The notes under the pieces were generated by a model. The model was not told where the DNA came from and did no database searches. It saw only the letters and a list, made by a program, of their open reading frames with translations. Source: an uncultured Candidatus Saccharibacteria bacterium (GTDB lineage Bacteria > Patescibacteriota > Minisyncoccia > Phycocordibacterales > CAIJYI01). From it: a DNA stretch of 59,162 bases. Shown piece after piece: positions 31,163 to 47,480 of this stretch (its first letter is position 1; every line of letters begins with the position of its first letter). A program made the position numbers and the translations under genes. The stretch is taken from positions 1 through 59,162 of the forward strand of contig CAYPFT010000003.1 in the NCBI GenBank assembly GCA_964410165.1, in the 5' to 3' direction.

Positions 31163-31394
31163 GAAATTATTATTACATTTTCATTATTCAAGTTTGGATT
31201 GAAAAATACTTCCCTAGCTTGCTACAATGATAGTGAAAATTCCGCAAACAAGCAATGATAAAGGAAGTTCCTTAACCTTTTCCGCGCAGGGATGGAAGCG
31301 GCAAGGAATAGATTTTGAAGTCCACCGAAGAAATTGGTAGTCCAAGCGAGCAATGGCGGTGTTTGCTCAGTGGCTTCGAAAACTAACCGGGAGT

Positions 31395-32015: not shown

Positions 32016-32088
32016 TTTCCTGTAAAATTTGGCCGGGCGCCGGCGAGCGATTTTTTGAGCCCTTGCTCAAAAAATTATCGCTCCGCCG

Positions 32089-32134
32089 TTCAAGCCCTCA
32101 CGAAAGCCAAGCAGTTGGCTTTCTTCCTCGGCAC
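32089..32134 (+). repeat. Inverted copy of the tRNA-Leu(UAG) 3' end, interrupted by a GCAG-loop hairpin (distal unit)
   Basis: TTCAAGCCCTC-ac-[gaaagccaaGCAGttggctttc]-t-TCCTCGGCAC. Followed by CTCGCTTTGCTC and a 24-nt direct copy of the tRNA-Leu 3' end plus 5 trailer nt (32156-32179). Confidence 0.7.
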
Positions 32135-32250
32135 AAAAATCTCGCTTTGCTCTATTTTTGTGCCGAGGAGAGGACTTGACCGTTACACGGTCAGTACCCG
32201 TTTCCCATTTTTTCGCCATCAAAGATGGCTCAAAAATATGGGGGAACGGC

Positions 32251-32296
32251 TTCAAGCCCTCTCTCGCAAGTGAAGCAGTTCACTTGCTCTCGACAC
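32251..32296 (+). repeat. Inverted copy of the tRNA-Leu(UAG) 3' end, interrupted by a GCAG-loop hairpin (proximal unit)
   Basis: TTCAAGCCCTCTCTCG-[caagtgaaGCAGttcacttg]-CTCTCGACAC. It faces the real tRNA-Leu 3' end 27 nt away. Confidence 0.7.
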
Positions 32297-32323
32297 CAAA
32301 AATACGCAGAGCGTATTATTTTG

Positions 32324-32405
32324 TGCCGAGGAGAGGACTTGAACCTCCATGGGTTGCCCCGTCTGCTCCTAAGGCAGGTGCGTCTACCAATTTCGCCACC
32401 TCGGC
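32324..32405 (-). tRNA. tRNA-Leu (anticodon TAG)
   Basis: GCCGAGGTGGCGAAATTGGTAGACGC..CTTAGGA..long variable arm..GGTTCAAGTCCTCTCCTCGGCA, 82 nt. No encoded CCA. Confidence 0.9.
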
Positions 32406-32518
32406 ATGAGCAACTTCACTACGGAATTTCTCCCTCGACTAAACTTTTCTACAGAAAAGTTTGTCTGGGCACCGCCTCACCCGTTTTGTCCGACCTCGGA
32501 CAAAACATGGCTCCGGCG

Positions 32519-32563
32519 TTCGAATCCTAACGGAAGCAAAGCAGTTTGCTTCCTCTGAGCGAC
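32519..32563 (+). repeat. Inverted copy of the tRNA-Lys 3' end, interrupted by a GCAG-loop hairpin (distal unit)
   Basis: TTCGAATCCTAac-[ggaagcaaaGCAGtttgcttcc]-tcTGAGCGAC. Followed by CTCGCTTTGCTC and a 15-nt direct copy of the tRNA-Lys 3' end (32581-32595). Confidence 0.7.
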
Positions 32564-32674
32564 CCTCCTCGCTTTGCTCAGTCCGCCCAGTAGGAATTTC
32601 TCTCCTTACAGGAGCAGTACACCTTTTCGACTTGTTCATCCGCCTTTGGCGGACTCACAAGTAACGAAAAGCTC

Positions 32675-32720
32675 TTCGAATCCTAACGGAAGCAAAGCAG
32701 TTTGCTTCCTCTGGGCGGAC
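32675..32720 (+). repeat. Inverted copy of the tRNA-Lys 3' end, interrupted by a GCAG-loop hairpin (proximal unit)
   Basis: TTCGAATCCTAac-[ggaagcaaaGCAGtttgcttcc]-tcTGGGCGGAC. The real tRNA-Lys 3' end (GTCCGCCCAGTAGGATTCGAA) starts 18 nt downstream. Confidence 0.75.
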
Positions 32721-32738
32721 ATTCCGCTTCGCTTCCTG

Positions 32739-32811
32739 TCCGCCCAGTAGGATTCGAACCTACGACCTTCTCGTTAAGAGCGAGCAGCTCTACCAACTGA
32801 GCTATGGGCGG
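32739..32811 (-). tRNA. tRNA-Lys (anticodon CTT)
   Basis: CCGCCCA/TGGGCGG acceptor (C1:G72), anticodon loop CTCTTAA, T-loop TTCGAAT, 73 nt. No encoded CCA. Confidence 0.85.
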
Positions 32812-33070
32812 CAGATAAAAAATTAAAATTGAAAAAGTTAAAACTTGTACTCCAAAATTAACTTTCTCTACTATACTGTATTTTCAGATATTTCTCAACT
32901 TGTCTTTATAACCTTTTTCATTTTTCACTTTCAGATTTTCATTTAACAAAGTGCGCTTGAAAGGATTGGATTGGAACAAGGTTTGGCAGGAACTCCGCTT
33001 TTGGCAGGGAGTTTTGCAGCCATCCTATCAAGCAATATAGTCATTTTATCAGAAATAGACACTTCTTTCT

Positions 33071-33739
33071 ATGACAGACCAAGACATACCAATACAGACC
33101 AGTAATACGAAGAAGTTTTCTTTTTACGAAAACTTTGACGGACATTACCACAAGATTGGCGAGATAAGAGAACTTATCCCGCAGTTTAAGGTTTTCTACT
33201 ATTCCGAGCGGCAAAATGACCCAGAACGAAGCGCTATCAAGATTATCAATGACTTCAACAGGAAAATCTCTCCGCTCACTTTCTTCCCTTGGGAGAAACA
33301 ATATCGCCTCTGGCGTAAAAAATGGGATGCAGACCTTCTCATAGAGCGGGGCTACAAACAGCAGCAACGTCAGATTATTAAGCTACGAGACGAGCAAAAC
33401 GGGCTTATCGTGCCAGATGAGCATTCCCTTGAGATTGGGACGCATACCCTCGCTGGGGAGCTTCTGAACGACGCTATGACCCTACTCAAAAGAGACCAGG
33501 AGGATGAAAGTTTCTATGATGAGGAAATCTTGGTTAAACGGAGAACCTATATCCTCAACGTCTTCAACTACGTTACAAGGGCTGTTCACGGCAAGGAAGC
33601 TCTTAAAATAAAATCTAACGCCGAAAAGCGCGAGACCTTCGGTTTTCTTACGGAACTCATCAATAGGTCAACCGCAGGCAAAATTACAAGCGATGAAATG
33701 GCATTGCTAAAACAATCAATAGGTCAGGACAAAAATTAG
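33071..33739 (+). CDS. Hypothetical protein (island cargo)
   Basis: 222-aa ORF, the only plus-strand gene in the left part of the island. No family recognised. Confidence 0.5.
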   Translation: MTDQDIPIQTSNTKKFSFYENFDGHYHKIGEIRELIPQFKVFYYSERQNDPERSAIKIINDFNRKISPLTFFPWEKQYRLWRKKWDADLLIERGYKQQQRQIIKLRDEQNGLIVPDEHSLEIGTHTLAGELLNDAMTLLKRDQEDESFYDEEILVKRRTYILNVFNYVTRAVHGKEALKIKSNAEKRETFGFLTELINRSTAGKITSDEMALLKQSIGQDKN

Positions 33740-33927
33740 CCCTGCTTTTGTTCGCCATCCTTCTTTTCAAGCTCATCAACCCATTCTTTCTTGATGGGTC
33801 TGTAAATAGCATCGAACATCGTTAGAAGATTTATACCTTCTTCGGCTGCCTTCTCGTCGGAGATGTCCTCGCCAAACTGCTCCTTCCAGATTTTTTTGAA
33901 CTCTTTTAGTGCTTTATTGGACAGCAT
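33736..33927 (-). CDS. Small hypothetical protein (last gene of the R-M operon)
   Basis: 63 aa starting at MLSNKALKEFKKIWKEQFG. Overlaps the upstream membrane-protein gene by 14 nt. Confidence 0.4.
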   Translation of the reverse strand: MLSNKALKEFKKIWKEQFGEDISDEKAAEEGINLLTMFDAIYRPIKKEWVDELEKKDGEQKQG

Positions 33928-34405
33928 AGTATTTTTTATAAACGATGTAGCCAATACCAAATACGATTAAAGATATGCCGAGCGGTGGGAATAGATACAA
34001 GATGAGATTAAAAATGTTGTAGAAAAAAGAGATGATGGTATTTAGCACATCTACAATGAACGGAATAATCACAAAATACATTCCGAGTATTAAGCCCCAC
34101 CATATCAAATCCTTCATTTCGTTATACTTTCTCCAGCCGCCGCGTGTGCCACGATAGAGAGAATAAAGAAACTTATAGAAACCCGTAGCAAACAAAAAAG
34201 CGCCGAGTGTTACATAAACCAACGCACTATAAAATAGTCGCGGTAATAATCCTGGCGCTTCTACGGGGTTTATAGATTGCCACTCAAAGCCCTTTTCCGT
34301 GAAGAAATGCCATAGCAACACAGCCAAAGCAAAAACGACGGCGAACGCCGCCGAAAATGTAACTTCTTTCCATTTTGTTTTCAAAACATTTCGATACCAG
34401 GTCAT
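33914..34405 (-). CDS. Multi-pass membrane protein (hypothetical)
   Basis: 163 aa with 4-5 hydrophobic helices. Starts 11 nt after the PHP-ATPase stop. Confidence 0.55.
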   Translation of the reverse strand: MTWYRNVLKTKWKEVTFSAAFAVVFALAVLLWHFFTEKGFEWQSINPVEAPGLLPRLFYSALVYVTLGAFLFATGFYKFLYSLYRGTRGGWRKYNEMKDLIWWGLILGMYFVIIPFIVDVLNTIISFFYNIFNLILYLFPPLGISLIVFGIGYIVYKKYYAVQ

Positions 34406-34416
34406 TATATTGACTA

Positions 34417-37086
34417 TTAAATGTGGAGCTTCTCACCACGTTTTTTGAACGCTTCTCTACCTCCCTCTAATTTCAACAACTCATCTCTGTTTTCTAAATC
34501 CTCGATGGTTGTTTCTATAAACTCTGTAATACCAGTTTCGTTTTTAAGTATGAAGATTTTTTCCGAATCTCCGTTCACTACGAAGTTAGCATTGTGAGTT
34601 GCAAAAATAATTTGTCTATTATTCTTTTTTCTCCTTATCAACGGGACAAGATAATTGGCAATAAGTGAGCCATCCAGATGAGCTTCTGGTTCGTCAATTA
34701 TCAGCGGATAATTACCAAACAAAAGCAGGACGACCATCACAGCTGTGCATTTTTGTCCAAAAGATGCGCGTTCTATATCCTTACCGTCATACAACACCTG
34801 GATGCGTTTATGTTTTGAAACATCATTGAGGTGTTTATCTCTTATGAACTGGAATACTTTGTAGTTAGATTCGTCCGCAAAAACATCCTTCAAGAACTTC
34901 ATATACCCAACTTTCTTTTCTTCTTTGGCAAGAAATGAAAGTATTTTTTCTTGGTTTTCTGCAAAGATTTCCTTGTTTTCAACAATGTATCCTTTCAACA
35001 GGTCGGTTCTTTCGCTATCGTGGTGTTCAGCGAAATAGGAATAAAAATCGCTGGCGATTTCTTTCCACGCTTGTTGCAGGTCGAAGAAGTAAGCCAAGCC
35101 AATATCCTTGATGTCTTCTTTGTCGTTTTCTTTTGCTTGTTCCTCTAATGTAGTTACAAGCGGCTTTATGGAGTCGCCAATAACTTTTTCGTATTCCAAT
35201 TTAACCCTTTTTGCTTCTTCGAGAATTGAATTATATTCACCCAGCTCTTTCTTTTTATCTTCGATTCTCTTTTTAATTTTAGACAACTCATCATTGACCT
35301 TAACGAGTTTTTGTGGAGCACTCTTAACCTGTAAGATGTTCTCATCCGAAAGTCCAGCTTTTTTTAGTAATTTTGAGAGTTCTTTTTCTTGAGTTTCGAT
35401 TTCTTTGGACAATCCTTCCTCTTTTTGAATTAGCGCCTTAAAGTTTTTTCTATCAAGAACCTCTCCTGCTTTTTCGATGTTTGCTTGAGCTTTGGAATAT
35501 GCCTCTTGATATTGTTTGGTTATATCGTCAGTGTCTGCCGTTGCTTGAGAATCTTCAGAGTTGTTATCGTTCGATGAATCCAAAACAAAGTGCTGCTCCT
35601 TGAGACCGCTTATTGACTCTCTTAACTCATCAACAGCGGTTCTCCAGCTCTCCAGTTGTTGTTTCTGATTACTTTTCTTTGTGATTATTCCTATGATGTC
35701 AGCGTATTCCTGGCTTTGTGTTACTTTAATGCTGTTTTCTAATGTTTTCTTTTCTTTCTCTTTGGCTTCCATCTCGGTGGCTGATTCCTTAATGGATTCA
35801 ATCACAAACTGAAAGGAAGCAATCTTTTTTAGAAGTTGGGAGAGCTTAAGCTCATCCTTCTCAAGCAAGCCATCGCTTAAAATGTTCGCTCGTTCGTAAA
35901 TTGCATCGGTAAATGCCTCTTTGTTGGTAGCGAAACTTTCAACTTCACTTTGCCCGATGAACTCAAATACCTCCACCCCATCAAATGTAAAAAAGTTTCT
36001 GTCCGCAGTGTTGAAAGATGGCTGGATTTTTTCCCAGAAAAAGTTTGAAGAACTGGGGTCTTTTGAGTGCTGACCTAAAAAATTAAGAACAGTGCTTTTA
36101 CCCGAACCTCTGCCTCCAATAAAACAATTTAGAAATGGACTTAAGAAAAATGTATCTTGTATGTTGGCAAAACAGAACGGCTCCTCCTTTTCAGTGCCAT
36201 CTTTCTGTTTGACGTTTATTTTTGCCCCCTTTGGTATCTTGAAAGTAATGCTGTCTATTGCGTTATTCGGTTTAATTGGCTCTTTCTCCTGTGTAGCAAC
36301 GCGCGATTGAGGGTCGTAAATAATTTGCTTAAGTCCTTCGTATGTTTTCTCGGACTTAATCCAAGTAAAGCCATCACCAACAACTGATGCCTGGTGAGCG
36401 TCAGAAGTTTTTATTAGGGCAAAGTGGTTTGGGTCGAAACTCCAACTTTTTATAATTTTTATTGTCTCACTTAAATCATCATCGGTTTTGTGGTCGAGAG
36501 CAAAATAATACTTTCCTCCAACCGCATTATCAAAGAACTTCTTTCGGTTCGCGCCCGTTGTTTTCTTAAACAGACCTTTGTTGCTTTGAGAATGCGCAAA
36601 GATTGGTAAGCCAATATCTTCCTTGTAAATCTTGTCCAGGATTTCGTGAATGTCGCCATTTATTGATTCCGCTTGTCCATTAGCATTAAAAACAGGTGAT
36701 GATAGATGACATATGTTATTCAAAAAATGTTCAATAGTTTCTTTCCAGGTCTGCTTGCCAATTTTTTCCTTATACAAGGGGTTGAAAACTACGAGTATTT
36801 GATAACCCGTATTTACATCTATCTCCACGCCAGCCAAAACCGTAATATCGAGCTTTTCTCCTTCGACAATCTCTAATGCCCTATCAATGGCAACTCCACA
36901 GTTATGGTCAGTTATAGCAACAACCGATATACCCTTCTCAATCGCTTTTTTTAGATAATCCCGTGTAGCATTAGTGATTTCGGCGGTCTTATTTGCCAAA
37001 TCTGAAAACCACTCATCCTTAATTGGCTGAATTTGCAAATCCCACTTTCTCCATTCTGAACCCCTGTTTTGTGATGTTTGACTCAT
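34417..37086 (-). CDS. PHP-domain phosphoesterase fused to an SMC/Rad50/SbcC-like ABC ATPase with a coiled-coil insert
   Basis: N-terminal PHP motifs (VVAITDHNCG, LAGVEIDV, FAHSQS, IKTSDAHQ). Walker A FIGGRGSGKSTVLNFLG. A ~300-aa Lys/Glu-rich coiled coil. Walker B PLIIDEPEAHLD, then IFATHNANF. Confidence 0.75.
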   Translation of the reverse strand: MSQTSQNRGSEWRKWDLQIQPIKDEWFSDLANKTAEITNATRDYLKKAIEKGISVVAITDHNCGVAIDRALEIVEGEKLDITVLAGVEIDVNTGYQILVVFNPLYKEKIGKQTWKETIEHFLNNICHLSSPVFNANGQAESINGDIHEILDKIYKEDIGLPIFAHSQSNKGLFKKTTGANRKKFFDNAVGGKYYFALDHKTDDDLSETIKIIKSWSFDPNHFALIKTSDAHQASVVGDGFTWIKSEKTYEGLKQIIYDPQSRVATQEKEPIKPNNAIDSITFKIPKGAKINVKQKDGTEKEEPFCFANIQDTFFLSPFLNCFIGGRGSGKSTVLNFLGQHSKDPSSSNFFWEKIQPSFNTADRNFFTFDGVEVFEFIGQSEVESFATNKEAFTDAIYERANILSDGLLEKDELKLSQLLKKIASFQFVIESIKESATEMEAKEKEKKTLENSIKVTQSQEYADIIGIITKKSNQKQQLESWRTAVDELRESISGLKEQHFVLDSSNDNNSEDSQATADTDDITKQYQEAYSKAQANIEKAGEVLDRKNFKALIQKEEGLSKEIETQEKELSKLLKKAGLSDENILQVKSAPQKLVKVNDELSKIKKRIEDKKKELGEYNSILEEAKRVKLEYEKVIGDSIKPLVTTLEEQAKENDKEDIKDIGLAYFFDLQQAWKEIASDFYSYFAEHHDSERTDLLKGYIVENKEIFAENQEKILSFLAKEEKKVGYMKFLKDVFADESNYKVFQFIRDKHLNDVSKHKRIQVLYDGKDIERASFGQKCTAVMVVLLLFGNYPLIIDEPEAHLDGSLIANYLVPLIRRKKNNRQIIFATHNANFVVNGDSEKIFILKNETGITEFIETTIEDLENRDELLKLEGGREAFKKRGEKLHI

Positions 37087-37092
37087 ATCATT

Positions 37093-39576
37093 TTATTCGC
37101 CCCACACTTCGGCGATTTTGTTTTCTACTTTATCCTCGTAAAGCTGAATCATCCTTTGAGCTGATTCTATATGTCCCTGTTCGTCTCGAAGTTGTTGCAC
37201 AATCTGCTTCTGTGTATCTAAATCTGGTAACGGGATTTTGAACTTCTTTATTTGGTCAGTGGTAAGATTCTTAAAAACAGCGCCTATTGATTGTGAATTG
37301 TTTAGCTGCTTTTGATTCAAGAACACATAGTATAAGAACTCTGGCAGTATGTCTTTTGAAAGTTCCCTAAACCCAACAAAGCCGTCGTGTATGCACGCGT
37401 CAACATTGAGAATTGACGGCAAGCCAGGGTTGCCGCTAACCGCCATAACTACCTCTCCTTTTTTCATTGGTCGGCTCAATTTTGCTCCTTCTTCCGTTAA
37501 AAAATCAGTTTGCGGGGTAACATACATTCCATCTCTTGTTACATCAGAAATCATCAAGCGCGGCACGCTGCCCCCATAATAGCGTTTATCTCCTTGTGGT
37601 CGCGGCGAACTGCCACGAACCAATTTGCATATACCATCAATCGCAATTTCTTTCCATTCGGGACTAATCTTTATTGTTGGTTTGTGGTGCGTAATGATTT
37701 GCTTCGCACCATCAATGACTTTTTGATAGCTATCGAGTTCGTCAGCAATTTCTTTTTGAAGTTCGGGCGGAGGGAGAGGGATTTTGTATTTTGACAACCA
37801 AACGGTGCTTAAGTTCTTTTGAGCAACACCATTTGATGATGCAATACACTCATTCTCAAAGGCATCGGCGTTTAGGAGATGAAATAAAAATCGTGTGGTG
37901 ATTTTTTCGGGATTGACCCGCAGGCAAGCTACTCTTTGATTTAGTGCAGCGGGTAAAAGTTCCCTCGTCATTAGCCCAACCCTACCAACATTTCCCGTTA
38001 AAGAAATCAACAGGTCATTTTCAAACAATTCGTATTTTTCGATAGATTCTTTAGAAACAAGTGGATAAAACTTTGGGTTGTCATCAACTATTTCTCCTTT
38101 TTGAACGTTGGTTATTCGTATTACGCGGACACCTTTATTAGTATAGTTATCACTCTTAAACGCATATCCGTTTACTATGTCGCAAACATCGCCAAGTTTT
38201 ACCATTTCCCATTTGTGGTTAAAAACTTTGGCAATGTGATTATATCTATCGCCAGAAAGATTGTATTCTCCGTCTTCAGCGATTTGAGTTTTTGGAACAG
38301 CCCACGCAAACAAACTACCTTCTTTGAGCAAATGGTTCTTTTTACCTGTTCTTATTATCTCGTGCTGTGTTTTAAGGATTTCAACGGCGTGTGGTAAATC
38401 GTTGCGGTCAATTGGCTTCCGCTGTGCCCCCAAATCAAAGCCATCATTGAGAATCTTGATGAATAGAATATCTTTTGATTGTTTTGCCAGCTGGTTATCA
38501 AAAAAAAGAATACTCGTTCTCACGCCAGAGTAAGGATTGAAAACTCCAGCAGGCAAAGACACAATCGCATACAATCCATCTTCAACAAGAAGTTTTCGCA
38601 ATTGCTTGTAGGAAGTCGCGGCAGTAAAAACAATCCCTTCGGGCACAATGATACCCGCCCGTCCTTTATTGTTGAGATGCTCTAATATGTAATCAACAAA
38701 AAGCACTTCAGAGCGGTTGGCTTGCACCATAAAGCGCTTATGTGGACGGATACCGCCTCTTGGTGTCATAAATGGCGGATTTGCCATCATTACATCGAAG
38801 CGCTCATCCCACTTTTCTTCGCTTGTAAGCGTGTCGTATTCGTGGATTTTTGGACTTGGGAAGCCGTGGAGATACATATTCACCAGGGAGAGCTTCACCA
38901 TATCTGGTGATATGTCGTATCCCGCGAGATTTGCCATCAGACGCTTTTTTTCATCAGGAGTCAGGGGTTTGTTCTTGTTGGATTTCAGAATGTGCTTATA
39001 GGCGGAAATCAAAAATCCAGCCGTGCCACAAGCGGGGTCAAGGATGGTTTCGTCTTTCTTTGGGTCAACCACTTCAACAATAAAATCAATGATGTGGCGC
39101 GGCGTTCGGAACTGTCCCGCTTCACCCTGTGAGCCAAGCACAGACAGCAGATACTCAAAAGCGTCGCCAAGATTCTCGCTGTGGTCGTAAGAAAAAGTGT
39201 TTATGTCCTTTAGGAACAGGTTTAGTGTTTCTGGGTCGCGGTATGGCAAAAAGGCATCTTTGAAGACATCACGGAAGAGTTGTGGCAGGTGTGGATTCTT
39301 CGACATCTTCGTTATGGCTTCCACATAGAGATTCAGACGCTCCTGCCCGCCAAGTTTCGCATCCATCATTTTGCTCCAAGCGTATTTCTCAAATCCGTTC
39401 GTAAAAAACTGCGGCTTGCCTTTTGGCAATGATGCGGCTTGCTTATCCATATCGTCCATAAACTTATAGATAAGTGCCGTGGTGATTTGCTCTACCTGGG
39501 CTTTTGGGTCTGGGACTTTGCCAACCAATACATCCCGCGCCGAATCAATTTTCTTTTTTATTTCTTGGGTCAACAT
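37093..39576 (-). CDS. hsdM: Type I restriction-modification methyltransferase fused to a specificity subunit (HsdM-HsdS fusion)
   Basis: HsdM N-terminus (VGKVPDPKAQVEQITTALIYKFMDD), AdoMet motif DPACGTAGFL, catalytic MANPPF. Followed by two TRD-like halves (WEMVKLGDVCDIVNGYAF..., WKEIAIDGICKLVRGSSPRP...). Confidence 0.85.
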   Translation of the reverse strand: MLTQEIKKKIDSARDVLVGKVPDPKAQVEQITTALIYKFMDDMDKQAASLPKGKPQFFTNGFEKYAWSKMMDAKLGGQERLNLYVEAITKMSKNPHLPQLFRDVFKDAFLPYRDPETLNLFLKDINTFSYDHSENLGDAFEYLLSVLGSQGEAGQFRTPRHIIDFIVEVVDPKKDETILDPACGTAGFLISAYKHILKSNKNKPLTPDEKKRLMANLAGYDISPDMVKLSLVNMYLHGFPSPKIHEYDTLTSEEKWDERFDVMMANPPFMTPRGGIRPHKRFMVQANRSEVLFVDYILEHLNNKGRAGIIVPEGIVFTAATSYKQLRKLLVEDGLYAIVSLPAGVFNPYSGVRTSILFFDNQLAKQSKDILFIKILNDGFDLGAQRKPIDRNDLPHAVEILKTQHEIIRTGKKNHLLKEGSLFAWAVPKTQIAEDGEYNLSGDRYNHIAKVFNHKWEMVKLGDVCDIVNGYAFKSDNYTNKGVRVIRITNVQKGEIVDDNPKFYPLVSKESIEKYELFENDLLISLTGNVGRVGLMTRELLPAALNQRVACLRVNPEKITTRFLFHLLNADAFENECIASSNGVAQKNLSTVWLSKYKIPLPPPELQKEIADELDSYQKVIDGAKQIITHHKPTIKISPEWKEIAIDGICKLVRGSSPRPQGDKRYYGGSVPRLMISDVTRDGMYVTPQTDFLTEEGAKLSRPMKKGEVVMAVSGNPGLPSILNVDACIHDGFVGFRELSKDILPEFLYYVFLNQKQLNNSQSIGAVFKNLTTDQIKKFKIPLPDLDTQKQIVQQLRDEQGHIESAQRMIQLYEDKVENKIAEVWGE

Positions 39577-39578
39577 AA

Positions 39579-42095
39579 TTACATATAGGCGTTAAGAGAC
39601 ACGTAATCCTTAACATATTCGGGCACACGCTCAATCCAGCCGTTGAGAGCATCAAGGTCAGAGAGGGTTAGTTTTGGATTTGTGGCAAGCCGTGTGTATT
39701 CTCCTTTTTCGATAACATCTCGAATCTCGTTATCGGTAATATACGCCTTGAGATAGTTTTTAATCGGCATTACGAATTGGCTTTCTGGTTTGTTGATTGC
39801 AATAAACTTCTCAAACTCGTCTTCAAGCAATTCGTCCTTCGACTTGAAATTAGTAATGCCACCGAATACTTTTTCGATAAACTCGCGTAAGCTGATTCTT
39901 CGGTCAGCTTTCACAGATTTGCGGAGTTTTTCCAGATTGAAAAAATCTTCGGGTTTATCGAAAATCTTATCCTTCACATAACCCTCGATAGTGTCCAGGT
40001 CTCCTTCTTCGTATTTTTGTTTGATAAACGAGTCATCCTTTACTGCCGCCTCAAACTTCTCGAAAAGTTTTCGGTCAATCTTCATCCCTTCAACCCCAAC
40101 CGCTTTTTCCGCAAATGTCTTTAATGGGTCTGGTTGAGTGATGCTAATTTCGTCAATGTTGATTCCTGGCTCGCCGCCTTCTCCGCCCATCCCCGTTTTA
40201 GCAGGTAGATGCAAAACTTCGTCATAATCGTATTTTTCCTCGAAATACTCACAGTTAGCAAAGTAATCAAATAATTTGAACTTATCCTTTGCCACTTGAG
40301 CTTGTTGAACATCTCCAGCTTCTTTTATCTGATGAGAAAACTTGTATTTGCGTGTGCCACGACCCTTGATTTGGATAAAGTCGGTTGGAGAAAAAATCGG
40401 GCGCATCAAAACAACATTAAGAATATCCTCACAGTCATACCCAGTCGTCATCATTCCAACTGTTACACATATGCGCGTCTTACTTGAGCGGTAGCCATCC
40501 AAAAACTTGGTATGACCATTGAGATTGTTGTTGGCAAAACTCACTGTAAAACTCTGGGCATCGGTGATATTAGAGGTAACTTGCACTGCAAAATCAGAAT
40601 TGTATTTACCAGGGTAGAGTTGGTCGGCAAACTGGTTGAGGATTTGTGTTACTTTCGAGGCGTGTTTTTGGCTTACGCAAAAAACAATACTCTTACCCAT
40701 TTCGTCCGTTATAGGGTCTTTCAGGGCGTTTTCAAAAAATGTTTTGCAAAAAATCTGATTGGTTTTGTCGGAGAAAAACTTGCGCTCGAAGTCAGTATGG
40801 AAAAAAGTTTGTTCCTCCTCTTTGCCGTTTTCATCTTCAACCATCATTGCGTAGCCCTTTTCTGAAAGTAATTCGGTTGTAATTTCCGTGCGGGCATCTG
40901 CAACAATGGGATTCACCAAGTAGCCATCTTTAACGCCATCGAGTAGGGAGTAGCGGAATGTCGGCTCGCCAGTTTCGCAACCGAAAGTTTTATACGTATC
41001 CAAAAGTTGACGGCGTTCCCACGCTCGCGGGTCTCGTGAATTGAGTTTGGCTGGGTCAATACCCTTGAGATAATTTTTGGGAGTTGCGGTAAGCCCCAAC
41101 TTATAACCAACAAAGTATTCAAAGACGGCGCGGCTGTTACCACCTATTGAACGATGAGCTTCATCTGAAATAAGCAGGTCAAAATCAGTTGGAGAAAAAA
41201 GTTTCTGGTATTTGTTATTGAAAGACAAACTTTGCACCGTTGAGACAACAATTTCTGCCTTTCTCCAATCATCCTTATTCTCTTTATAGATAACCGCGGT
41301 GTAATCTTTTGAAAGCCATTTTTTGAAGTTTTTGTGTGCTTGGTCTTCCAATTCCAAACGGTCAACTAAAAATAAGATTCGTTTAGCATTACCGCTTTTC
41401 AAAAAAAGTTTAATGACGGCTGCTGAAACAAGTGTTTTGCCCGTGCCAGTAGCCATTTCGAAAAGATAGCGGTCATTTCCAGTTGCGGCGGATTCTTGTA
41501 GCGCCTTTATAGCACGTAACTGGTAAGGGCGTAGGAACTTTAGTGCCTCTGCATCAATAAGGTCTTGGCGCTGTGCCTCATCTGCCCAACGCGGGTCGCT
41601 TTTATAATCTGATTTTTGTGTAAGGACGATGTAATCTTCATCAACTTTTTCATCAGCTATGCGCTTTGAGTTTGGTTTGAATTGTTCAAAATGTTCAAGA
41701 GAATCTGGCGTTGGAAACTGGATTATTACTGTCGGGTTGCCGCGTTCCAAATCCCAAAAATAATGTAGGTTTCCGTTCGACAGAATGATAAAACGAACAT
41801 TGAGTGATTGAGCATACTTTCGCGCTTGTTCCTTGCCGTCGAGTGGGTCTTTATCTTCGGATTTTGCCTCAAGAACTACATACGGAAATCCCTTTCCATC
41901 GAGTAGTAAAAAATCTATGAATCCATTTTTTGTTTTTTCAAAGTCAGCTCCAAACTCATCAACTTCTTTTTTAGTAAGTTTAGTGTTCAGTTCCAGAACA
42001 ATGTTTGCTTTGCCTTTTTCATTATCAAAAAATCTCCAACCAGATTTCTGGAGTAAGTCGTTTATCTTGATTCTGGCTTTTGCTTCCTTTTGCAT
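39579..42095 (-). CDS. hsdR: Type I restriction enzyme R subunit-like endonuclease/helicase
   Basis: N-terminal restriction-endonuclease-like region (ARIKINDLLQKSGW). SF2 helicase motifs MATGTGKT and SDEAHRS, then QIKGRGTR. Confidence 0.85.
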   Translation of the reverse strand: MQKEAKARIKINDLLQKSGWRFFDNEKGKANIVLELNTKLTKKEVDEFGADFEKTKNGFIDFLLLDGKGFPYVVLEAKSEDKDPLDGKEQARKYAQSLNVRFIILSNGNLHYFWDLERGNPTVIIQFPTPDSLEHFEQFKPNSKRIADEKVDEDYIVLTQKSDYKSDPRWADEAQRQDLIDAEALKFLRPYQLRAIKALQESAATGNDRYLFEMATGTGKTLVSAAVIKLFLKSGNAKRILFLVDRLELEDQAHKNFKKWLSKDYTAVIYKENKDDWRKAEIVVSTVQSLSFNNKYQKLFSPTDFDLLISDEAHRSIGGNSRAVFEYFVGYKLGLTATPKNYLKGIDPAKLNSRDPRAWERRQLLDTYKTFGCETGEPTFRYSLLDGVKDGYLVNPIVADARTEITTELLSEKGYAMMVEDENGKEEEQTFFHTDFERKFFSDKTNQIFCKTFFENALKDPITDEMGKSIVFCVSQKHASKVTQILNQFADQLYPGKYNSDFAVQVTSNITDAQSFTVSFANNNLNGHTKFLDGYRSSKTRICVTVGMMTTGYDCEDILNVVLMRPIFSPTDFIQIKGRGTRKYKFSHQIKEAGDVQQAQVAKDKFKLFDYFANCEYFEEKYDYDEVLHLPAKTGMGGEGGEPGINIDEISITQPDPLKTFAEKAVGVEGMKIDRKLFEKFEAAVKDDSFIKQKYEEGDLDTIEGYVKDKIFDKPEDFFNLEKLRKSVKADRRISLREFIEKVFGGITNFKSKDELLEDEFEKFIAINKPESQFVMPIKNYLKAYITDNEIRDVIEKGEYTRLATNPKLTLSDLDALNGWIERVPEYVKDYVSLNAYM

Positions 42096-42098
42096 AAT

Positions 42099-42278
42099 TT
42101 ACTTGTGTATGTTGGAGCTACGTCGAATAAAATCTTGCAGGTCTTCCTCGTATATGCGCCATCTGCCGATTTTTGTCGCTTTCAGCTTCTTCGCCTCGAT
42201 ATAGCGATAGACAGTGCGCTCTCCAACCTGGAGTCGCTTTGCTACTTTTTCTATTGTTAGAAACTTCTTTTTTGGCAT
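42099..42278 (-). CDS. Small HTH (excisionase/MerR-like, HTH_17-type) protein heading the R-M operon
   Basis: 59-aa ORF not in the track: MPKKKFLTIEKVAKRLQVGERTVYRYIEAKKLKATKIGRWRIYEEDLQDFIRRSSNIHK. Its stop lies 4 nt before the hsdR ATG. Confidence 0.6.
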   Translation of the reverse strand: MPKKKFLTIEKVAKRLQVGERTVYRYIEAKKLKATKIGRWRIYEEDLQDFIRRSSNIHK

Positions 42279-42511
42279 AGCTACCAGTTATGATTTGTTA
42301 TGACTTGATATAACGAATCATAACGCTTCATAACTCTTATGTCAAAAATGTTCAAAACTGACAACTGGTTTTTTCTGCACAATTTTATTTTTTTCAGAGC
42401 TGTGGATAAGTATTCTATAACTTTCTTATACTCTTATGCACTTTGGATAACGCGCTTATACATCAAAAAACTTGTTGCAATTTTATGAACTGGTAAAATT
42501 AAATTGACAGT

Positions 42512-42724
42512 TACGTAGTTGCCGAGAGAAAACGGCAACTATCGAGCAGCAGAAGTAACGTCGCCAATACAATCGTATCCAGCTGCGATTGTCTACGTGA
42601 AAACGTAGCGCGACTCTTTCGATTCGCTGGTGGCGATAAACTTCTGCTGATGCACAAAGCCCGTTAGCGGCTTTGCGGGTCGCCTCAAAGCAGAAGCCCC
42701 GCCAAGCCATTAGCGGGTTTTTTC
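42512..42724 (+). ncRNA. Candidate structured RNA (cloverleaf-like four-way junction plus terminator); family unknown
   Basis: Nested helices. Outer pair: cagcagaagt (42547-56) with acttctgctg (42640-49). Next pair: cgtcgcca (42559-66) with tggtggcg (42628-35), enclosing three hairpins, including ctacgt-GAAA-acgtag. Then caaagccg-ttag-cggctttg and cccgc..gcggg + T7. A TGgTAAAAT -10-like box lies upstream. Confidence 0.35.
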
Positions 42725-42725
42725 T

Positions 42726-42980
42726 ATGCTCACTGTCGAACAATGTAAAAAAATCCTTGGCGAAAAAACCAAGAATTATACAGACGAACAAATCGAAGCA
42801 ATACGAGATGAGCTTTATATAGCTGCGAACCTTTCTTTTGAACATTGGAGAAAAAGCCATTGTCTGACTTCGGGAGATTCCAACACGTCTCCCGAAGTGA
42901 GCCAACGGCTCGCGCCTAACCCACTCCCTGTCGGAGACCCTGTGGGCGTAAAAAAACAGGGGGAAGATAAGCCAAGATAA
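42726..42980 (+). CDS. Hypothetical small protein (uncertain)
   Basis: 84-aa ORF. The first ~40 aa look protein-like (LTVEQCKKILGEKTKNYTDEQIEAIRDELYIAANLSFEHW). The 3' half overlaps hairpin-rich DNA. No SD. Confidence 0.3.
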   Translation: MLTVEQCKKILGEKTKNYTDEQIEAIRDELYIAANLSFEHWRKSHCLTSGDSNTSPEVSQRLAPNPLPVGDPVGVKKQGEDKPR

Positions 42981-43273
42981 CGGATTCCTTAGTTGCACTG
43001 GTAATTGTGAGGTCTCCAGCTGGAGACGCAGCCGAGCGAGGCGGTAATCCTCGCCGATGGGAAAGAATAAAAAAAATCGCCGTCCGATTTTTCTCAACCC
43101 TTTCCCTGCTCCTTGAGAGACACCACCGCGCGTGGGACATAGACCAAGACAGATACAGGTATAGACATACAACAGATACCAGGTATCAAGGACAACGGCT
43201 CGTGGGCGGTGGGGGTATGTAATGGCAATAGCAATTAAAGGTCGAGATTATTTAATAATCCAAAAATAACTTT

Positions 43274-43444
43274 ATGAGAGACCAGCATTACTCAAATAAA
43301 ACAATTAGGATGGCTGATAAAACCTGGGAGACATTGAAACATAAGCGGAAAAAATCTGGCAAAACCTGGAACTTATATCTGCTGGATTTGCTCAAGAAAA
43401 AAAGTCAGTCAAAAAGTTTTGAACCAGAAAAATCCGAGTTGTAG
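43274..43444 (+). CDS. Hypothetical small basic protein (56 aa)
   Basis: MRDQHYSNKTIRMADKTWETLKHKRKKSGKTWNLYLLDLLKKK... Possibly a ribbon-helix-helix-like DNA binder. Not in the ORF track (under 60 aa). Confidence 0.3.
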   Translation: MRDQHYSNKTIRMADKTWETLKHKRKKSGKTWNLYLLDLLKKKSQSKSFEPEKSEL

Positions 43445-43831
43445 AGGGCATCCCCGCCGCCTTCAGAAGGGTTAAAAGGAGAACTACGACCACCCAAATG
43501 TGGTTTTACGCAAAAATAGTAAGGGATTAGAAGGGTCTATACCTCTACAAGCCATCACGGTATAACGCGGAATAACCCTTGTAATACGTGTCTGTGTAGG
43601 CAAGAGGAGAATTACTACCCCAGACGTGGAAAGCCCAGAAATAAAAACAGCCCTCGTGGGGCAATGGCATTAAATAGACATTTTATTTCGTTCACTCGAA
43701 TCAAATACAAACTTTCACTTACAAACTAATCATAGCAAAGCTACCCACTGCGTCAAGTGGATAACTTATACAAACTTTCAGCTCATCCTACCGCATTAAA
43801 TGTCTATTAAGAGAAACGCCAACAAAAAATT

Positions 43832-44050
43832 ATGAACAAGCCATTAGAACAATCCAGTCCACTAAACGCTACGAGCGAAGTCGAAACCATCGGGGTGAGT
43901 GCTGTATCAAAATCCCTTGGTGTATCACGCGCTACTGTTTTGCGTTGGATTCAGGCGAAAAAAATTGATGGTTTCTTTCGCATCGGCAGCAAGTGGCTTA
44001 TTCGCAAGATTGATTTTGATACTTTCATCAATAAAAAAATTAGCAGCTAA
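43832..44050 (+). CDS. Excisionase-family HTH (HTH_17) DNA-binding protein
   Basis: 72 aa. VSAVSKSLGVSRATVLRWIQAKKIDGFFRIGSKWLIRKIDFDTFI. Confidence 0.65.
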   Translation: MNKPLEQSSPLNATSEVETIGVSAVSKSLGVSRATVLRWIQAKKIDGFFRIGSKWLIRKIDFDTFINKKISS

Positions 44051-44060
44051 TAATAAAGTT

Positions 44061-44525
44061 ATGAACGAGCACAACAAAGAGTCAGCTGAAAAAGGAGGTC
44101 ATTATTTCAAATACGTTATAGGCATTCTGTTTTTAGCTTTTGTAAGTAGTTTAATATCGCTTGCCTTACTGGATACTTTGGGATATGAGGACATCTCTAT
44201 TTACGTCCTCTGGGGAATCTGGGTAGTGATTTTATCTCTTTATTGCTGGAATGCAGAGCCAGAAAAATACCCGCAATATACGGAGACCCCGTGGGAAGCA
44301 AGGGCAAGGTATGTTGGAGAACTTTGTATCTATACTTTTTTTGGATTCTTGGGCACTATCGGGTCGCTGGCTGTATTGGGAATGTTGCTGCAATGGATTT
44401 TAGAAATAGACATCAGTGAAATGGGAAATACTTATCGTCTTATTTTCCTTGCTTGGGGCGGGTGGATAATAGGGTTGCACATATGGTTTAAGGAGCAGGA
44501 AAAAAGGAAATCTCAAAAACAATGA
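44061..44525 (+). CDS. Membrane protein (hypothetical)
   Basis: 154 aa starting at MNEHNKESAEKGGHYF, with 4 hydrophobic helices. Its stop overlaps the recombinase start (ATGA). Confidence 0.5.
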   Translation: MNEHNKESAEKGGHYFKYVIGILFLAFVSSLISLALLDTLGYEDISIYVLWGIWVVILSLYCWNAEPEKYPQYTETPWEARARYVGELCIYTFFGFLGTIGSLAVLGMLLQWILEIDISEMGNTYRLIFLAWGGWIIGLHIWFKEQEKRKSQKQ

Positions 44526-45412
44526 GTAACTACATCACACAATTTTTACATTACCTTGCCGTTGAACGCGCCTTCTCGCCGCGAACTATTGCCGCATACC
44601 AACACGACTTGGATAAGTTCGAGGAGTTTTTAATGACTGAAAACAAAACGGACATTATCCATATTACAAAGGAAGATGTGCGCCACTTTTTATCGCAACA
44701 AGCCAAAACAAACGGAGCTGTTACGCGTGCCCGCAAACTTTCTTCAATAAAATCTTTTTTCAAATACCTTGGACACGAGGGAGTTATTGCTGCAAACCCT
44801 GTAAGCGACATAGAAGCTCCGAAGTTACCAGAAAAAGAACCCTCTTATCTTACAGAGATTGAATACCGAGACCTTATATCAGCAGTCAGATTCAAAGCAA
44901 CGCCATACTACCTTCCGCGTGATATGGCTATCGTTATCTTGTTCTTGGGCACTGGTATTCGTTTGTCAGAACTTGTTGGATTGACACTGGATAGAGTAAA
45001 TCTTGAGGGCAACGACAGAAACATCATAGTGAAAGGCAAGGGCAACAAAGAGCGAACTATTCCTCTAACAAATGAGGTTGTAAATGTTCTTCGGCAGTAT
45101 TTGAAGGAACGTCGAGATGTAGCAAGTAACCATCTCTTCATAAGTCGGTTCGATGATGAGCTTCACGCCCGTAGCGTATACGGTCTCGTAAAGAAATACC
45201 TAAAAGTCGCTGACATCAAAAAGAACAAAGCGGCAGTTCATACACTACGCCACACATTCGGCGCATCTCTTTTGAACAGTGGAGCTAACCTTGTAGTTAT
45301 TCAAGAGCTTTTAGGGCATAAAAAGCTGGAAACCACCAGACGTTATTTGCATATCAATAACGTTGACCTACGTAACGCGGTAGATAAATTAGTTTTGAAC
45401 AAACCACAATGA
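44522..45412 (+). CDS. Tyrosine recombinase/integrase (XerC/XerD-like)
   Basis: 296 aa with an N-terminal SAM-like core-binding domain. Catalytic-domain motifs GTGIRLSEL, HTLRHTFG, LLGHKKLETTRRYLH. Confidence 0.85.
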   Translation: MSNYITQFLHYLAVERAFSPRTIAAYQHDLDKFEEFLMTENKTDIIHITKEDVRHFLSQQAKTNGAVTRARKLSSIKSFFKYLGHEGVIAANPVSDIEAPKLPEKEPSYLTEIEYRDLISAVRFKATPYYLPRDMAIVILFLGTGIRLSELVGLTLDRVNLEGNDRNIIVKGKGNKERTIPLTNEVVNVLRQYLKERRDVASNHLFISRFDDELHARSVYGLVKKYLKVADIKKNKAAVHTLRHTFGASLLNSGANLVVIQELLGHKKLETTRRYLHINNVDLRNAVDKLVLNKPQ

Positions 45413-47057
45413 GCCACACACCGACAAAACCAAAAGCAATAATTTACCTGCGAGTATCCTCGAAGGAGCAGCTCAAGGGTAAAAGTATGGAAACCCAAAA
45501 AGCCGACTGTAAAAAATACTGTGCAGAGCAAGGGTTTGAGGTTGTAGAGATTTTCATAGAGGAAGGAGAATCTGCAAAGAACGATGACAGAACCCAACTG
45601 CAACGCTTGCTGGCATACTGCCGAGAACACAAAAAACAAATCAGTTATCTTGTTATTTGGAAGGTTGACAGGTTAGCAAGAAACATCGGCGATTTCTACG
45701 AAATACAAAAAACCTTAATGGCGCACGGAGTAGTTATTCATTCCGCTACTGAAACAGGCATCAATGGAGAAGGTATTACCGCCGAAGTAATGACGGGATT
45801 TCTCGCTATATTCGCCCGCATAGACAATAAGATAAAATCCGATAGAAGCAGAACTAATTTGCGGGCGCTATTACGCTCTGGCATATACCCCTTATCCCCT
45901 CCGCTCGGTTACATTTCGAGACAAAATAAAAAGCACTCGCAAAAGAAACGGCTTCCAGACCCCATAGATGAGGAGCGATTTTTCATAATCCAGCGCGGGT
46001 TAAAAGAGTTCTCCACGGGAATACACACGGTGAAAAGTTTGACGATGAGATTTAGGGAATTGGAGCTGACTTCTCGCACTGGTAAAAAAATCTATCCTCA
46101 AATGGTGGATGTGATGCTCACAAACGTATTCTATGCTGGTTGGATTGAAGATAAGCACTGGACACCAGAAGATTTACCAGATGAGAAACTTGTTAGAGGT
46201 CTACATACCCCAGCGATTACGCTTGAGGAGTTTCAAAAAAACCAGCTCATTAAAGCTGGACGTTCAGTGAATGCGAAACCACGCTCACGAGCCAATCCAG
46301 ATTTTCCCTTACGTGATTTTGCACGATGCTACGAGTGTAAAGGCACTCTGACGGGCAGCTGGTCTCGTGGACACGGCGGGCGATATGCCTATTATCACTG
46401 CAAAAATAGAAAGTGTGCCCGCTATGGGAAAGGAAACTCAAAAACAGACGTTGAAAAATCTTTTATTACTTTACTTGAAAAAGTAGCGCCAACGGAAGTT
46501 GCTCTTACTCTTTTCAAAGAAATTGCCCTGGATGTTTGGGAAACAAATCGCAAGGCACTCAATGCTGATGGTGAGCGCCACGAAAAGAAGATTGCGGAGA
46601 TAAAAACTCAAATCGCCGAATTGATTACAATGCGAGGTCGTGGTCTTATCACTGATGAGCAATTACTGGAAGGGAAACAGCCGTTGGAAGAGGCAAAAAT
46701 CATAGCCCAGCTTGCTCTCAATGAAACTCGTATCGAGGAATGGGACATTGAAGCTGCCATTAGCTACGCAACGCAGTTTATGCGTGATTTGCCGCGGCAA
46801 TGGTTGGATTACTCGCTTGAAAACAAGCAAAGGTTCCAACAAATGGCATTTCCAGAAGGAGTTATTTACGAAAAGGAAAAAGTTTGTCGAACCCAAAAGT
46901 TAGGGCTTATTTACGAACTTTTGCAGGGCGTTGATACCCCTAATTTTGATTTGGTGCCCGGGGCGGGAGTCGAACCCGCAAGAGCTTATGCCCACGACAT
47001 TTTAAGTGTCGCGTGTCTACCAATTTCACCACTCGGGCATTCATTATCTCAAACTTG

Positions 47058-47058: not shown

Positions 47059-47129
<71 letters not shown>

Positions 47130-47145
47130 GCGGTGTAATCTTATG

Positions 47146-47469: not shown

Positions 47470-47480
47470 GGTATTTTCGA

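Follow-up and report, generated by a model that had tools for sequence, protein, structure and literature searches.

Restriction-modification (R-M) systems are the commonest form of bacterial defence, and the wiring of other defence systems to them is poorly understood. The locus described here raises this question in a concrete form: why should a nuclease-ATPase resembling the defence protein Ppl be encoded at the 3' end of an R-M operon, and does it work together with the enzymes encoded before it? The locus lies in a stretch of 59,162 nt (the window, to which all positions refer), contig CAYPFT010000003.1 of assembly GCA_964410165.1, from an uncultured Candidatus Saccharibacteria bacterium. 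A block of six minus-strand genes (33736-42278) encodes, in this order, a small helix-turn-helix (HTH) leader, the type I restriction subunit HsdR, a fused methyltransferase-specificity protein (HsdM::HsdS, or HsdM::S), a protein of 889 amino acids (aa) of the TrlF family, a transmembrane (TM) protein and a 63-aa protein. A first-pass annotation had proposed that the 889-aa protein provides a second line of defence linked to the R-M system. The analysis presented below leads us to conclude that the locus is very probably an R-M operon extended by a TrlF defence gene and carried on a mobile island.

It is already known that a second defence gene can be appended to, or embedded in, an R-M operon under the control of a small leader repressor; TrlF has been named and Ppl has been characterised. 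The arrangement reported here, a Ppl-like nuclease-ATPase joined 3' to R-M operons of varied kinds and retained during exchange of the R-M cassette, is recurrent and unstudied. In the literature searched we found no description of (i) a systematic 3'-terminal placement of TrlF in R-M operons irrespective of their type, (ii) a leader...TrlF bracket with exchangeable R-M cassettes, (iii) the QxQ/HxH split of the PHP site, or (iv) a shared terminal gene encoding four TM segments. Nor was the combination of genes seen in the window described there, and the earlier impression that it had not been characterised still stands.

TrlF genes behind R-M modules of different types

We examined 164 loci encoding TrlF relatives (78 loci from genomes, 80 from metagenomes, and additional look-ups) by local calling of open reading frames (ORFs), seed searches and comparison with Pfam. 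The close clade (roughly at least 38% identity) comprises 31 non-redundant loci with at least 500 nt of upstream sequence. An R-M gene is located directly upstream, on the same strand, in 26 of them, and in 23 of these 26 linked loci it is separated from the TrlF gene by no more than 30 nt or overlaps it. The upstream modules are diverse: type I (12 loci), ISP/IIG-like proteins combining a methylase with a target-recognition domain (6), type III Mod-Res (4), an EcoRI-like methylase with GmrSD (3), and PLD with SNF2 (1). In two loci (L102 and L001) the TrlF gene is embedded within the R-M operon. The proposed coupling to R-M was therefore substantiated, but its supposed specificity for type I systems was not.

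Among distant relatives the link is weaker: the partner encoded upstream is most often Methylase_S (9 of 61 proteins), and many loci have no relation to R-M. In two of them (L001 and L077) a TrlG-like gene is located 3' of the TrlF gene; this partner (AlbA_2 + HATPase_c_4) was found neither among the operon genes of the window nor in the scanned neighbours.

A direct comparison is provided by TrlF proteins with 88-93% full-length identity, which are encoded behind both type I systems (L097, L100, L101, L102) and an EcoRI-like methylase with GmrSD (L005). Because near-identical TrlFs sit behind unrelated R-M types, a hand-over by way of the DNA substrate is more plausible than specific contacts between proteins. 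The same proteins bear on the possibility that TrlF guards restriction, i.e. that it senses anti-restriction proteins or R-M failure and then triggers its nuclease, as PrrC does for EcoprrI and PARIS for Ocr. This analogy had been drawn in the first-pass annotation, and it finds some footing in the matches of the ATPase region to the AriA, AriAB and HEC-01A ABC ATPase models (E = 1.9e-11 to 2.2e-05), as well as in the near confinement of the anticodon nuclease PrrC to type I loci. However, near-identical TrlFs behind mechanistically unrelated R-M types are hard to reconcile with a sensor for one R-M complex or one inhibitor class, the AriA similarity is restricted to generic ABC ATPase lobes, and neither a Toprim nor an anticodon-nuclease domain was found. 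We regard a guard function as highly improbable. Taken as a whole, the first-pass interpretation is upheld in part.

Exchange of the R-M cassette is also seen in a related island, L080, which encodes a TrlF 73% identical to that of the window. The two share backbone DNA comprising a convergent 222-aa gene, the TrlF gene, the HTH leader and the region through the recombinases, and their synteny is broken only at an R-M slot (37087-42088) and at a TM slot (33636-34417). The former, extending from the HTH stop to the TrlF start, is occupied by a type I system in the window and by a type III system in L080, where a homologous 59-aa leader stands at the head of the type III R-M + TrlF operon. The slot 3' of TrlF holds the TM gene in the window, and an S49/NfeD peptidase together with DUF2726 in L080.

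TrlF genes are also frequent on conjugative plasmids; 651 of 901 matching records are typed as conjugative. In Escherichia coli IncF plasmids the interval between finO and repA (e.g. NZ_CP097428.1; L177, 1117-8856) carries the order leader-HsdR-HsdM::S-TrlF, with a 62-aa leader, an HsdR 58.8% identical to that of the window over its full length and an HsdM::S 45.7% identical. A close IncF HsdR occurs in about 55 plasmid records. Megablast comparison of the region with complete E. coli genomes gave no match, and the link with IncF emerged only with tblastn. Elsewhere, TrlF adjoins a type II R-M system on a Klebsiella plasmid, lies upstream of a type III system on a Lactococcus plasmid, accompanies a TrlG-like gene on a Yersinia ruckeri plasmid, and occurs alone in a defence-rich region of a Salmonella plasmid.

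The TrlF protein

Profile comparisons place the predicted 889-aa protein in the TrlF family. NCBIfam TrlF_fam_ATP (NF045780) matches with 425.3 bits against a cut-off of 350 (E = 8.1e-127), residues 8-888 corresponding to profile positions 1-944. The comparison with Ppl was only partly correct: the relatedness of the protein to Ppl is evident from the partial match of the PADLOC model (PDLC02208; E = 3.5e-33, best stretch 769-886) and from the NCBIfam Ppl model (NF042955; E = 1.8e-48, best stretch residues 9-335), but the latter yields 165.2 bits against a cut-off of 1000. On these scores the protein is a TrlF-family member that is related to, but falls outside, Ppl proper. With 2568 clusters at 50% identity (E of 1e-30 or better), the family is a large one. 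A search of the PDB with its profile returned weak PHP matches only.

Pfam recognises a PHP domain and AAA_21. In the AlphaFold2 (AF2) model, whose confidence (pLDDT) is 75, a PHP barrel is followed by a two-lobed ABC head, and a helical hairpin (residues 407-653) projects between the lobes. Foldseek matched the model to the heads of SMC, RecN, Rad50 and JetC proteins and to PHP domains of the RNase AM type. The ATPase motif residues are intact: Walker A (GGRGSGKS), Walker B (LIIDE), the SFGQ signature, the Q-loop and the H-loop (H831). The apex of the coiled coil (residues about 500-520) is acidic, disordered and of low pLDDT, and contains no Cys, so there is no CxxC zinc hook. The initial description of the last three genes as encoding a PHP/Rad50-like ATPase, a membrane protein and a 63-aa ORF after the R-M genes agrees with these domain and fold assignments and with the four hydrophobic segments of the TM protein.

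The Rad50/SMC/RecN-like fold of the head and coiled coil raises the possibility that the 889-aa protein is a housekeeping repair enzyme of the SbcCD/Rad50 kind that lies beside R-M genes by chance. This is close to refuted. The gene is located in a low-GC mobile island without an SbcD/Mre11 partner, its product has no CxxC hook at the apex, and the TrlF family has a patchy distribution, occurs on plasmids and groups with defence models. A match to a housekeeping SbcCD-like system, named beforehand as an outcome that would overturn the defence reading, was thus not what we found.

The PHP site of the protein is unusual. Its ligands are D16, Q18, Q20, H61, E88, H165, D229 and H231, and motif I (D16-L-Q18-I-Q20) is of the form QxQ rather than the canonical HxH, which is present as DFHNH in the Ppl of a Klebsiella pneumoniae plasmid. 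Of the 120 best homologues we surveyed the 115 of nearly full length. In 90 of them HxH is combined with Tyr at position 61 and the absence of His at 165; in 23, including the 889-aa protein, QxQ is combined with H61 and H165. The two patterns are mutually exclusive. E88 and D229 are present in all 115 proteins, and H231 in 107. Such co-variation points to a metal site that has been remodelled under selection rather than one in decay.

Side by side with this variation, we observed mosaic TrlF proteins (L003, L004, L005, L097 and others), some pairs of which are about 87-91% identical over the C-terminal two-thirds or half but only about 70% identical overall. Many database matches likewise reach a higher identity while spanning just 75% of the query. 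Such mosaicism points to intragenic recombination near the boundary between PHP and ATPase.

The R-M core and the organisation of the operon

HsdR combines an N-terminal PD-(D/E)xK nuclease with a superfamily 2 motor, as is characteristic of type I restriction subunits. Its motifs are D..EAK (about residues 60-77), GTGKT at 217, DEAH at 311, TAT, and QxxGR at 575. The best NCBIfam model, EcoAI/FtnUII, gives 251 bits against an equivalog cut-off of 550, which does not allow assignment to EcoAI (type IB).

The 827-aa HsdM::S protein was confirmed as a fusion of the methyltransferase with both target-recognition halves. It matches the PADLOC models MTase_I (1.3e-99) and Specificity_I (1.5e-60), and its motifs DPACGTAG and NPPF (at residue 266) identify a gamma-class N6-adenine methyltransferase. 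Both target-recognition domains are in the same polypeptide as the methyltransferase, with no separate HsdS. This architecture is a common one: full-length fused homologues of 800-850 aa form more than 120 database clusters (46-80% identity) from many phyla and from archaea. Three relatives of the fused protein (P0210, P0217 and P0232; 1041-1071 aa) carry an additional N-terminal domain, PF18734, a further instance in which an accessory module has been joined to the R-M core.

An assignment of the locus to the MADS system was considered and rejected. Only the mad1, mad2 and mad5 models match (generic HTH, methyltransferase and S subunit), and the mandatory MAD6, MAD7 and MAD8 are absent.

All six ORFs were verified at the positions given in Table 1. 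The successive junctions consist of gaps of 3, 2, 6 and 11 nt followed by a 14-nt overlap between the TM gene and the small ORF, so the tight packing reported in the first-pass annotation is correct. Stop and start codons nearly touch at the junctions, and no clear Shine-Dalgarno motifs were found there. Independent gene calls in another assembly from the same groundwater sample (L176) gave the same seven genes, with identical lengths, the convergent 222-aa gene included. We infer from spacing and signals that the six genes are co-transcribed from one promoter; the sequence occurs in seven sequencing runs, all of them groundwater DNA metagenomes, and it is for this reason that the argument is built on spacing and signals.

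Table 1. Positions of the operon genes, of predicted control signals and of the island that carries them
Feature	Coordinates	Strand	Remarks
HTH_17 (excisionase-family) leader, 59 aa	42099..42278	-	first operon gene; Pfam HTH_17 1.4e-16; TIGR01764 1.2e-12
HsdR, type I restriction subunit, 838 aa	39579..42095	-	HSDR_N + ResIII + Helicase_C; PADLOC REase_I 8.4e-57
HsdM::HsdS, 827 aa	37093..39576	-	N6_Mtase at residues 134-447 (7.5e-54); two Methylase_S stretches, 454-628 and about 636-807
TrlF-family protein, 889 aa	34417..37086	-	N-terminal PHP and ABC/SMC-like ATPase head split by long coiled coil
TM protein, 163 aa	33914..34405	-	four hydrophobic segments, giving four predicted transmembrane helices
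Small ORF, 63-aa acidic soluble protein	33736..33927	-	14-nt overlap with TM gene; 74 aa if read from an upstream TTG
Sigma-70-like promoter	42317..42345	-	TTGACA-17-TATGAT; 11/12 matches; 39 nt 5' of HTH start codon
Operator-like array	42287..42334	-	GTTATGA, GTTATGA, GTTATAT, TCATAAC, TCATAAC; 10-11 nt phase
Terminator-like hairpin	34336..34353	-	GC-rich stem and T run, inside codons 18-27 of the TM gene
Convergent gene, 222 aa	33071..33739	+	function not assigned; stop overlaps small-ORF stop by 4 nt
Low-GC integrative island, ~14 kb	32812..46951	.	between tRNA-Lys(ctt) and tRNA-Leu(taa); operon is its cargo
Tyrosine recombinase	44522-45412	+	Phage_integrase 5.8e-37
Large serine recombinase	45409-47058	+	Resolvase + Recombinase + Zn_ribbon_recom

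The leader and its control signals

The excisionase-type HTH protein preceding HsdR had been proposed as a possible controller, and the signals found around its gene fit this proposal. The promoter listed in Table 1 is the top-scoring site between 32800 and 43400. The total number of promoter-like sites in this interval shows no excess over shuffled controls, and only the position and the score of the leader promoter are therefore taken as evidence. The heptamer array overlaps the -10 box and the 5' leader of the HTH gene. Exact GTTATGA sites number seven in the whole window (both strands), and four of them fall in this array of 48 nt. A different repeat array is present at the corresponding position in L080.

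The small DNA-binding first ORF and the repeated sites over its own promoter are thus those of an R-M controller, as far as can be read at the sequence level, and the HTH_17 leader is a putative autoregulatory repressor. Neither the HTH_3 (Cro/C1) fold of classical C proteins nor the RptR fold was recognised in it, HTH_17/excisionase being the best family. HTH_3 leaders are found in sister loci (L100, L101, L005, L004 and L104), and related operons in general are headed by small DNA-binding leaders of the HTH_17, HTH_3 or ribbon-helix-helix-like type. A precedent for a leader repressor of an R-M locus is provided by RptR (PMC12255303).

A terminal module shared with other defence operons

The suggestion that the PHP-ATPase, the TM protein and the small ORF form a conserved trio beside R-M genes was not upheld. 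No homologue of the TM gene was found in the 164 other TrlF loci, which means that the trio is not a unit; the TM gene follows other defence genes instead. Its family (78 database homologues) has the invariant residues W3, W42, P51, S60, G68, Y94, K98, W102, N122, S126 and N130. Neither the TM protein nor the 63-aa protein has a match in PHROGs, Pfam, NCBIfam or PADLOC, the AF2 model of the former (pLDDT 83) has no Foldseek match in the PDB, and profile searches of the PDB with the TM, small and 222-aa proteins gave chance-level matches only (e.g. annexin at E = 0.05).

Nine contexts of the TM gene were examined. In the window it is preceded by HsdR-HsdM::S and TrlF. The same HsdR-HsdM::S pair is followed in L165 by a 262-aa protein and a PifA-like KAP NTPase, in L167 by an Old-like ATPase, and in L170 by a FokI-domain protein and an S49 peptidase. 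The TM gene comes after HsdM-HsdS-HsdR, an HEC-05-like GmrSD_N protein and an S49 peptidase in L172, after HsdR and four poorly annotated proteins in L174, and after an MmeI-like enzyme ... FokI-domain protein on the P0143 contig. The remaining two contexts are a DUF4917 protein (L175) and, in a serine-recombinase island, a 1249-aa protein of unknown function (L184). In all nine the TM gene is last or next to last, and lies no more than 10 nt from the preceding gene.

The 63-aa protein also belongs to a conserved family. Its members begin with MLS in the alignment, which supports the ATG start. Homologues are encoded 3' of the TM gene in the window, L165, L170 and L174; they also occur without it, directly after TrlF in L112 and downstream of TrlF in L080 and L113. 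Judged by gene order, the TM family is a terminal gene of predicted defence operons in Patescibacteria, and the TM + 63-aa pair a terminal module common to operons with different accessory defence genes. The TM protein, which has no known relatives, is a candidate common component of PifA-, Old-, HEC-05- and FokI-like operons.

An S49/NfeD-type peptidase recurs in the accessory regions (L080, 12675-13998; L170, 5160-5993; L172, 6181-6993), sometimes immediately before the TM gene. DUF2726 occurs in the accessory region of L080 and again close to finO on a Ppl-bearing IncF plasmid of Klebsiella (L186).

The mobile island

The operon is the cargo of an island whose GC content is 0.38-0.45, against 0.45-0.53 in the flanks. 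The 3' end of its serine recombinase ORF overlaps tRNA-Leu(taa) on the opposite strand (46952-47129), and the same kind of overlap was observed in L080 (728-802), L086 (5317-5391) and L100 (2331-2422). These features suggest a family of small Patescibacteria elements, which would use a serine + tyrosine recombinase pair and insert at tRNA genes. The tRNA overlapped by the recombinase varies among the related islands (Leu, Glu, Pro or Ser).

No long direct repeats that could represent attachment sites were found at the island ends, as expected for serine recombinases, and the ends were therefore set from the L080 synteny and the GC content; apart from the similarity of the two tRNA-Leu genes, no repeat spans the island. 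Logan contigs are interrupted within both tRNA-Lys and tRNA-Leu. Some contig joints pass from one tRNA-Leu gene to the other and omit about 14.65 kb; their sides measure only 20-25 nt, with unrelated letters between them, and they were read as tRNA genes of other organisms and not used as evidence of an empty site. In the source sample (run X1, window 31000-48500) the word depth of the island contigs is 17.2-17.7, compared with 11.5-13 in the contigs on either side; more than one strain may carry the island, or it may exist also in an excised form.

Homologues of the 222-aa gene, likewise convergent and equivalently placed, are present in L080-82 (319 bits) and L165 (400 bits), and the product of the gene has no match in the family libraries, PHROGs or the PDB. 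It is an island backbone gene that lies outside the operon. The products of two further genes (229 and 208 aa) match nothing in PHROGs, Pfam, NCBIfam or PADLOC.

This organisation invites another explanation of the association. The leader, TrlF, the TM and small proteins and the 222-aa gene might constitute the backbone of the element, with R-M genes as hotspot cargo, and TrlF might serve the element itself in exclusion or competition. It would account for the two variable slots, and only two, in the synteny of the window with L080, for the serine recombinase lying over a tRNA gene in four related islands, for TM homologues that end the cargo region of islands without R-M (L175 and L184), and for the frequency of TrlF on conjugative plasmids. 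However, TrlF and R-M genes are adjacent also outside such islands, in many phyla and on plasmids with other backbones, and the absence of the TM gene from the other TrlF loci indicates that the supposed backbone is not a fixed set. We consider this explanation improbable.

Several observations concern the neighbourhood of the island. A 43-nt element containing a hairpin (GGAAGCAAA...TTTGCTTCC) is present in three copies (32089-32131, 32519-32561 and 32675-32717), two of them 98% identical, which surround the tRNA-Leu and tRNA-Lys genes and may act as a terminator or processing signal. Two adjacent paralogous genes (28310-29701 and 29735-31162) encode nicotinate phosphoribosyltransferase-like proteins of 463 and 475 aa. 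On the other side, positions 47481-48998 encode an IF-2-like GTPase which, at only 505 aa, is without the long N-terminal extension typical of bacterial IF-2 proteins. A 723-aa protein encoded at the window's far end (1530-3701) has domains of TrwB/VirD4-type coupling proteins, a hint that genes for type IV secretion or conjugation may lie close by.

A possible mechanism

We propose the following course of events. A single promoter 5' of the HTH_17 leader would drive all six genes, and the leader would bind the heptamer array over its own -10 box and limit expression, as C proteins and RptR do. HsdR and HsdM::S would form a type I R-M enzyme that methylates host DNA and cuts unmodified incoming DNA. 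TrlF would be a single-chain analogue of Rad50/SbcC, in which the PHP nuclease domain replaces Mre11/SbcD. Whenever restriction cuts incoming DNA, a TrlF encoded after the R-M genes would meet 3'-OH ends. Its SMC-like head might find these ends or nicks, and the PHP domain, supposing that a QxQ-type site retains nuclease activity, would degrade or block the cut DNA and so prevent its repair or recombination. The coupling between R-M and TrlF would be achieved through the DNA substrate rather than through protein contacts. The TM and 63-aa proteins would form a separate terminal module behind whichever accessory defence gene is present, serving in membrane tethering or as an effector.

We hold this substrate coupling tentatively, at somewhat less than an even chance, and we infer the action of TrlF on restriction-made ends from the position of its gene and from the properties of Ppl. 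A number of points weigh against it. R-M is absent upstream in 5 of the 31 close-clade loci, and Ppl and many TrlF relatives occur alone or are paired with TrlG, not with R-M; TrlF is thus not strictly dependent on an R-M partner. Simple clustering of defence genes in an operon would give the same adjacency. With regard to transcription, the case for a single transcript has been made from spacing and signals, all runs being DNA; moreover, a promoter-like site with 10 of 12 matches is located within the TrlF gene, and the terminator-like hairpin lies 65 nt 3' of the TrlF stop. This hairpin may be an attenuator that lowers read-through, or a coincidence of Ala/Phe codons in a conserved helix: the peptide that it encodes (SAAFAVVFALA) is kept in the TM homologues, and coding constraint alone could therefore account for it. 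Finally, the nuclease of the 889-aa protein may be altered or inactive, because its motif I is QxQ, and E. coli Ppl loses its defence function through the substitution H12A, located in the N-terminal nuclease domain (bioRxiv 10.1101/2022.06.16.496414). H12 is probably a motif I histidine; the alignment available was with the K. pneumoniae plasmid Ppl.

The main rival explanation is independent layering, in which TrlF is a self-sufficient, Ppl-like defence that merely shares the promoter and controller of the R-M genes, the two acting on different phages or at different stages without hand-over. Ppl does act alone in E. coli (bioRxiv 10.1101/2022.06.16.496414), and type I R-M, BREX and DISARM loci often embed stand-alone defence genes (bioRxiv 10.1101/2024.01.29.577857). 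Moreover, PifA-like, Old-like, FokI-domain or HEC-05-like genes occupy in sister loci the slot behind the same HsdR-HsdM::S, and several plasmids, like the five close-clade loci just mentioned, have TrlF without R-M. Against layering stand the very regular position of TrlF, which closes the R-M block on the same strand, with a gap of at most 30 nt in 23 of the 26 linked loci, and the persistence of the HTH...TrlF bracket while the R-M cassette between its ends is swapped. Both suggest something more than loose clustering but are compatible with layering, which appears to us somewhat unlikely.

Substrate coupling, if true, would offer a simple and general route by which two defence systems can cooperate, and it would provide a function for the large TrlF family, which has a name but no function. 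A wider generalisation can be envisaged, although we find it unlikely: the PHP/SMC-like proteins of the TrlF type might be general "restriction amplifiers", licensed by DNA ends or nicks from any upstream R-M enzyme and standing in for RecBCD in reduced genomes and on plasmids, with the HTH...TrlF bracket as a docking site for R-M cassettes and the 4-TM + 63-aa pair as a second shared module.

Comparison with known systems

The name TrlF comes from the temperature restriction locus trlR-trlF-trlG of Photorhabdus laumondii, whose only known phenotype, growth arrest at 36 C, was mapped to trlG rather than trlF (PMC7554251). The Photorhabdus protein belongs to the same family by cut-off, combines PHP and ATPase, and is likewise preceded by a small putative regulator (TrlR, 79 aa). 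The window differs in that it has no TrlG, a leader of the HTH_17 family, and a complete type I R-M system between leader and TrlF. On plasmid pYR3 of Yersinia ruckeri, fragments of type I methylase genes are found between the regulator and trlF (PMC7554251).

E. coli Ppl is described as a 3'-5' exonuclease acting on single-stranded DNA, which is held off by bound nucleoside triphosphates and licensed by 3'-OH ends produced by phage homing endonucleases (reviewed in PMC12904381). It shares with the 889-aa protein the N-terminal PHP nuclease domain, the ABC ATPase and a length of about 890 aa, and hidden Markov models match at both ends; the plasmid Ppl is about 27% identical to the window TrlF over half the length. 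Ppl is, however, encoded by a lone gene and has HxH, whereas the protein of the window is the product of the fourth gene of an R-M operon and has QxQ.

The accessory modules PrrC, RloC and DarTG2 (the last in the RptR-controlled island of enteropathogenic E. coli) differ from that of the window, which is a PHP/SMC-like nuclease-ATPase instead of an anticodon nuclease or a toxin-antitoxin pair, is appended after the R-M genes, serves several R-M types and stands under an HTH_17 leader rather than RptR. In comparison with PARIS and other OLD-type systems, the match of the AriA and AriAB models is confined to the ATPase part, and Pfam detects no Toprim domain. The fold match with SbcCD/Mre11-Rad50 comprises an ABC head, a long antiparallel coiled coil and a metal-dependent phosphoesterase for DNA ends. 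In the 889-aa protein, however, a fused PHP domain takes the place of the separate calcineurin-like subunit, the zinc hook is lacking and the context is one of mobile defence instead of a core repair locus, no gene for SbcD/Mre11 being found in the island.

A further counterpart is the uncharacterised operon of the E. coli IncF plasmids. Its leader is ribbon-helix-helix-like, its HsdM::S is shorter (677 aa, apparently with one target-recognition domain), its TrlF is only 26-39% identical to that of the window and has the canonical HxH, and neither a TM gene nor the small ORF follows TrlF. The four-gene order of leader, HsdR, HsdM::S and TrlF-family ATPase is nevertheless the same in both, and natural IncF plasmids thus permit the arrangement to be tested directly in a standard laboratory host.

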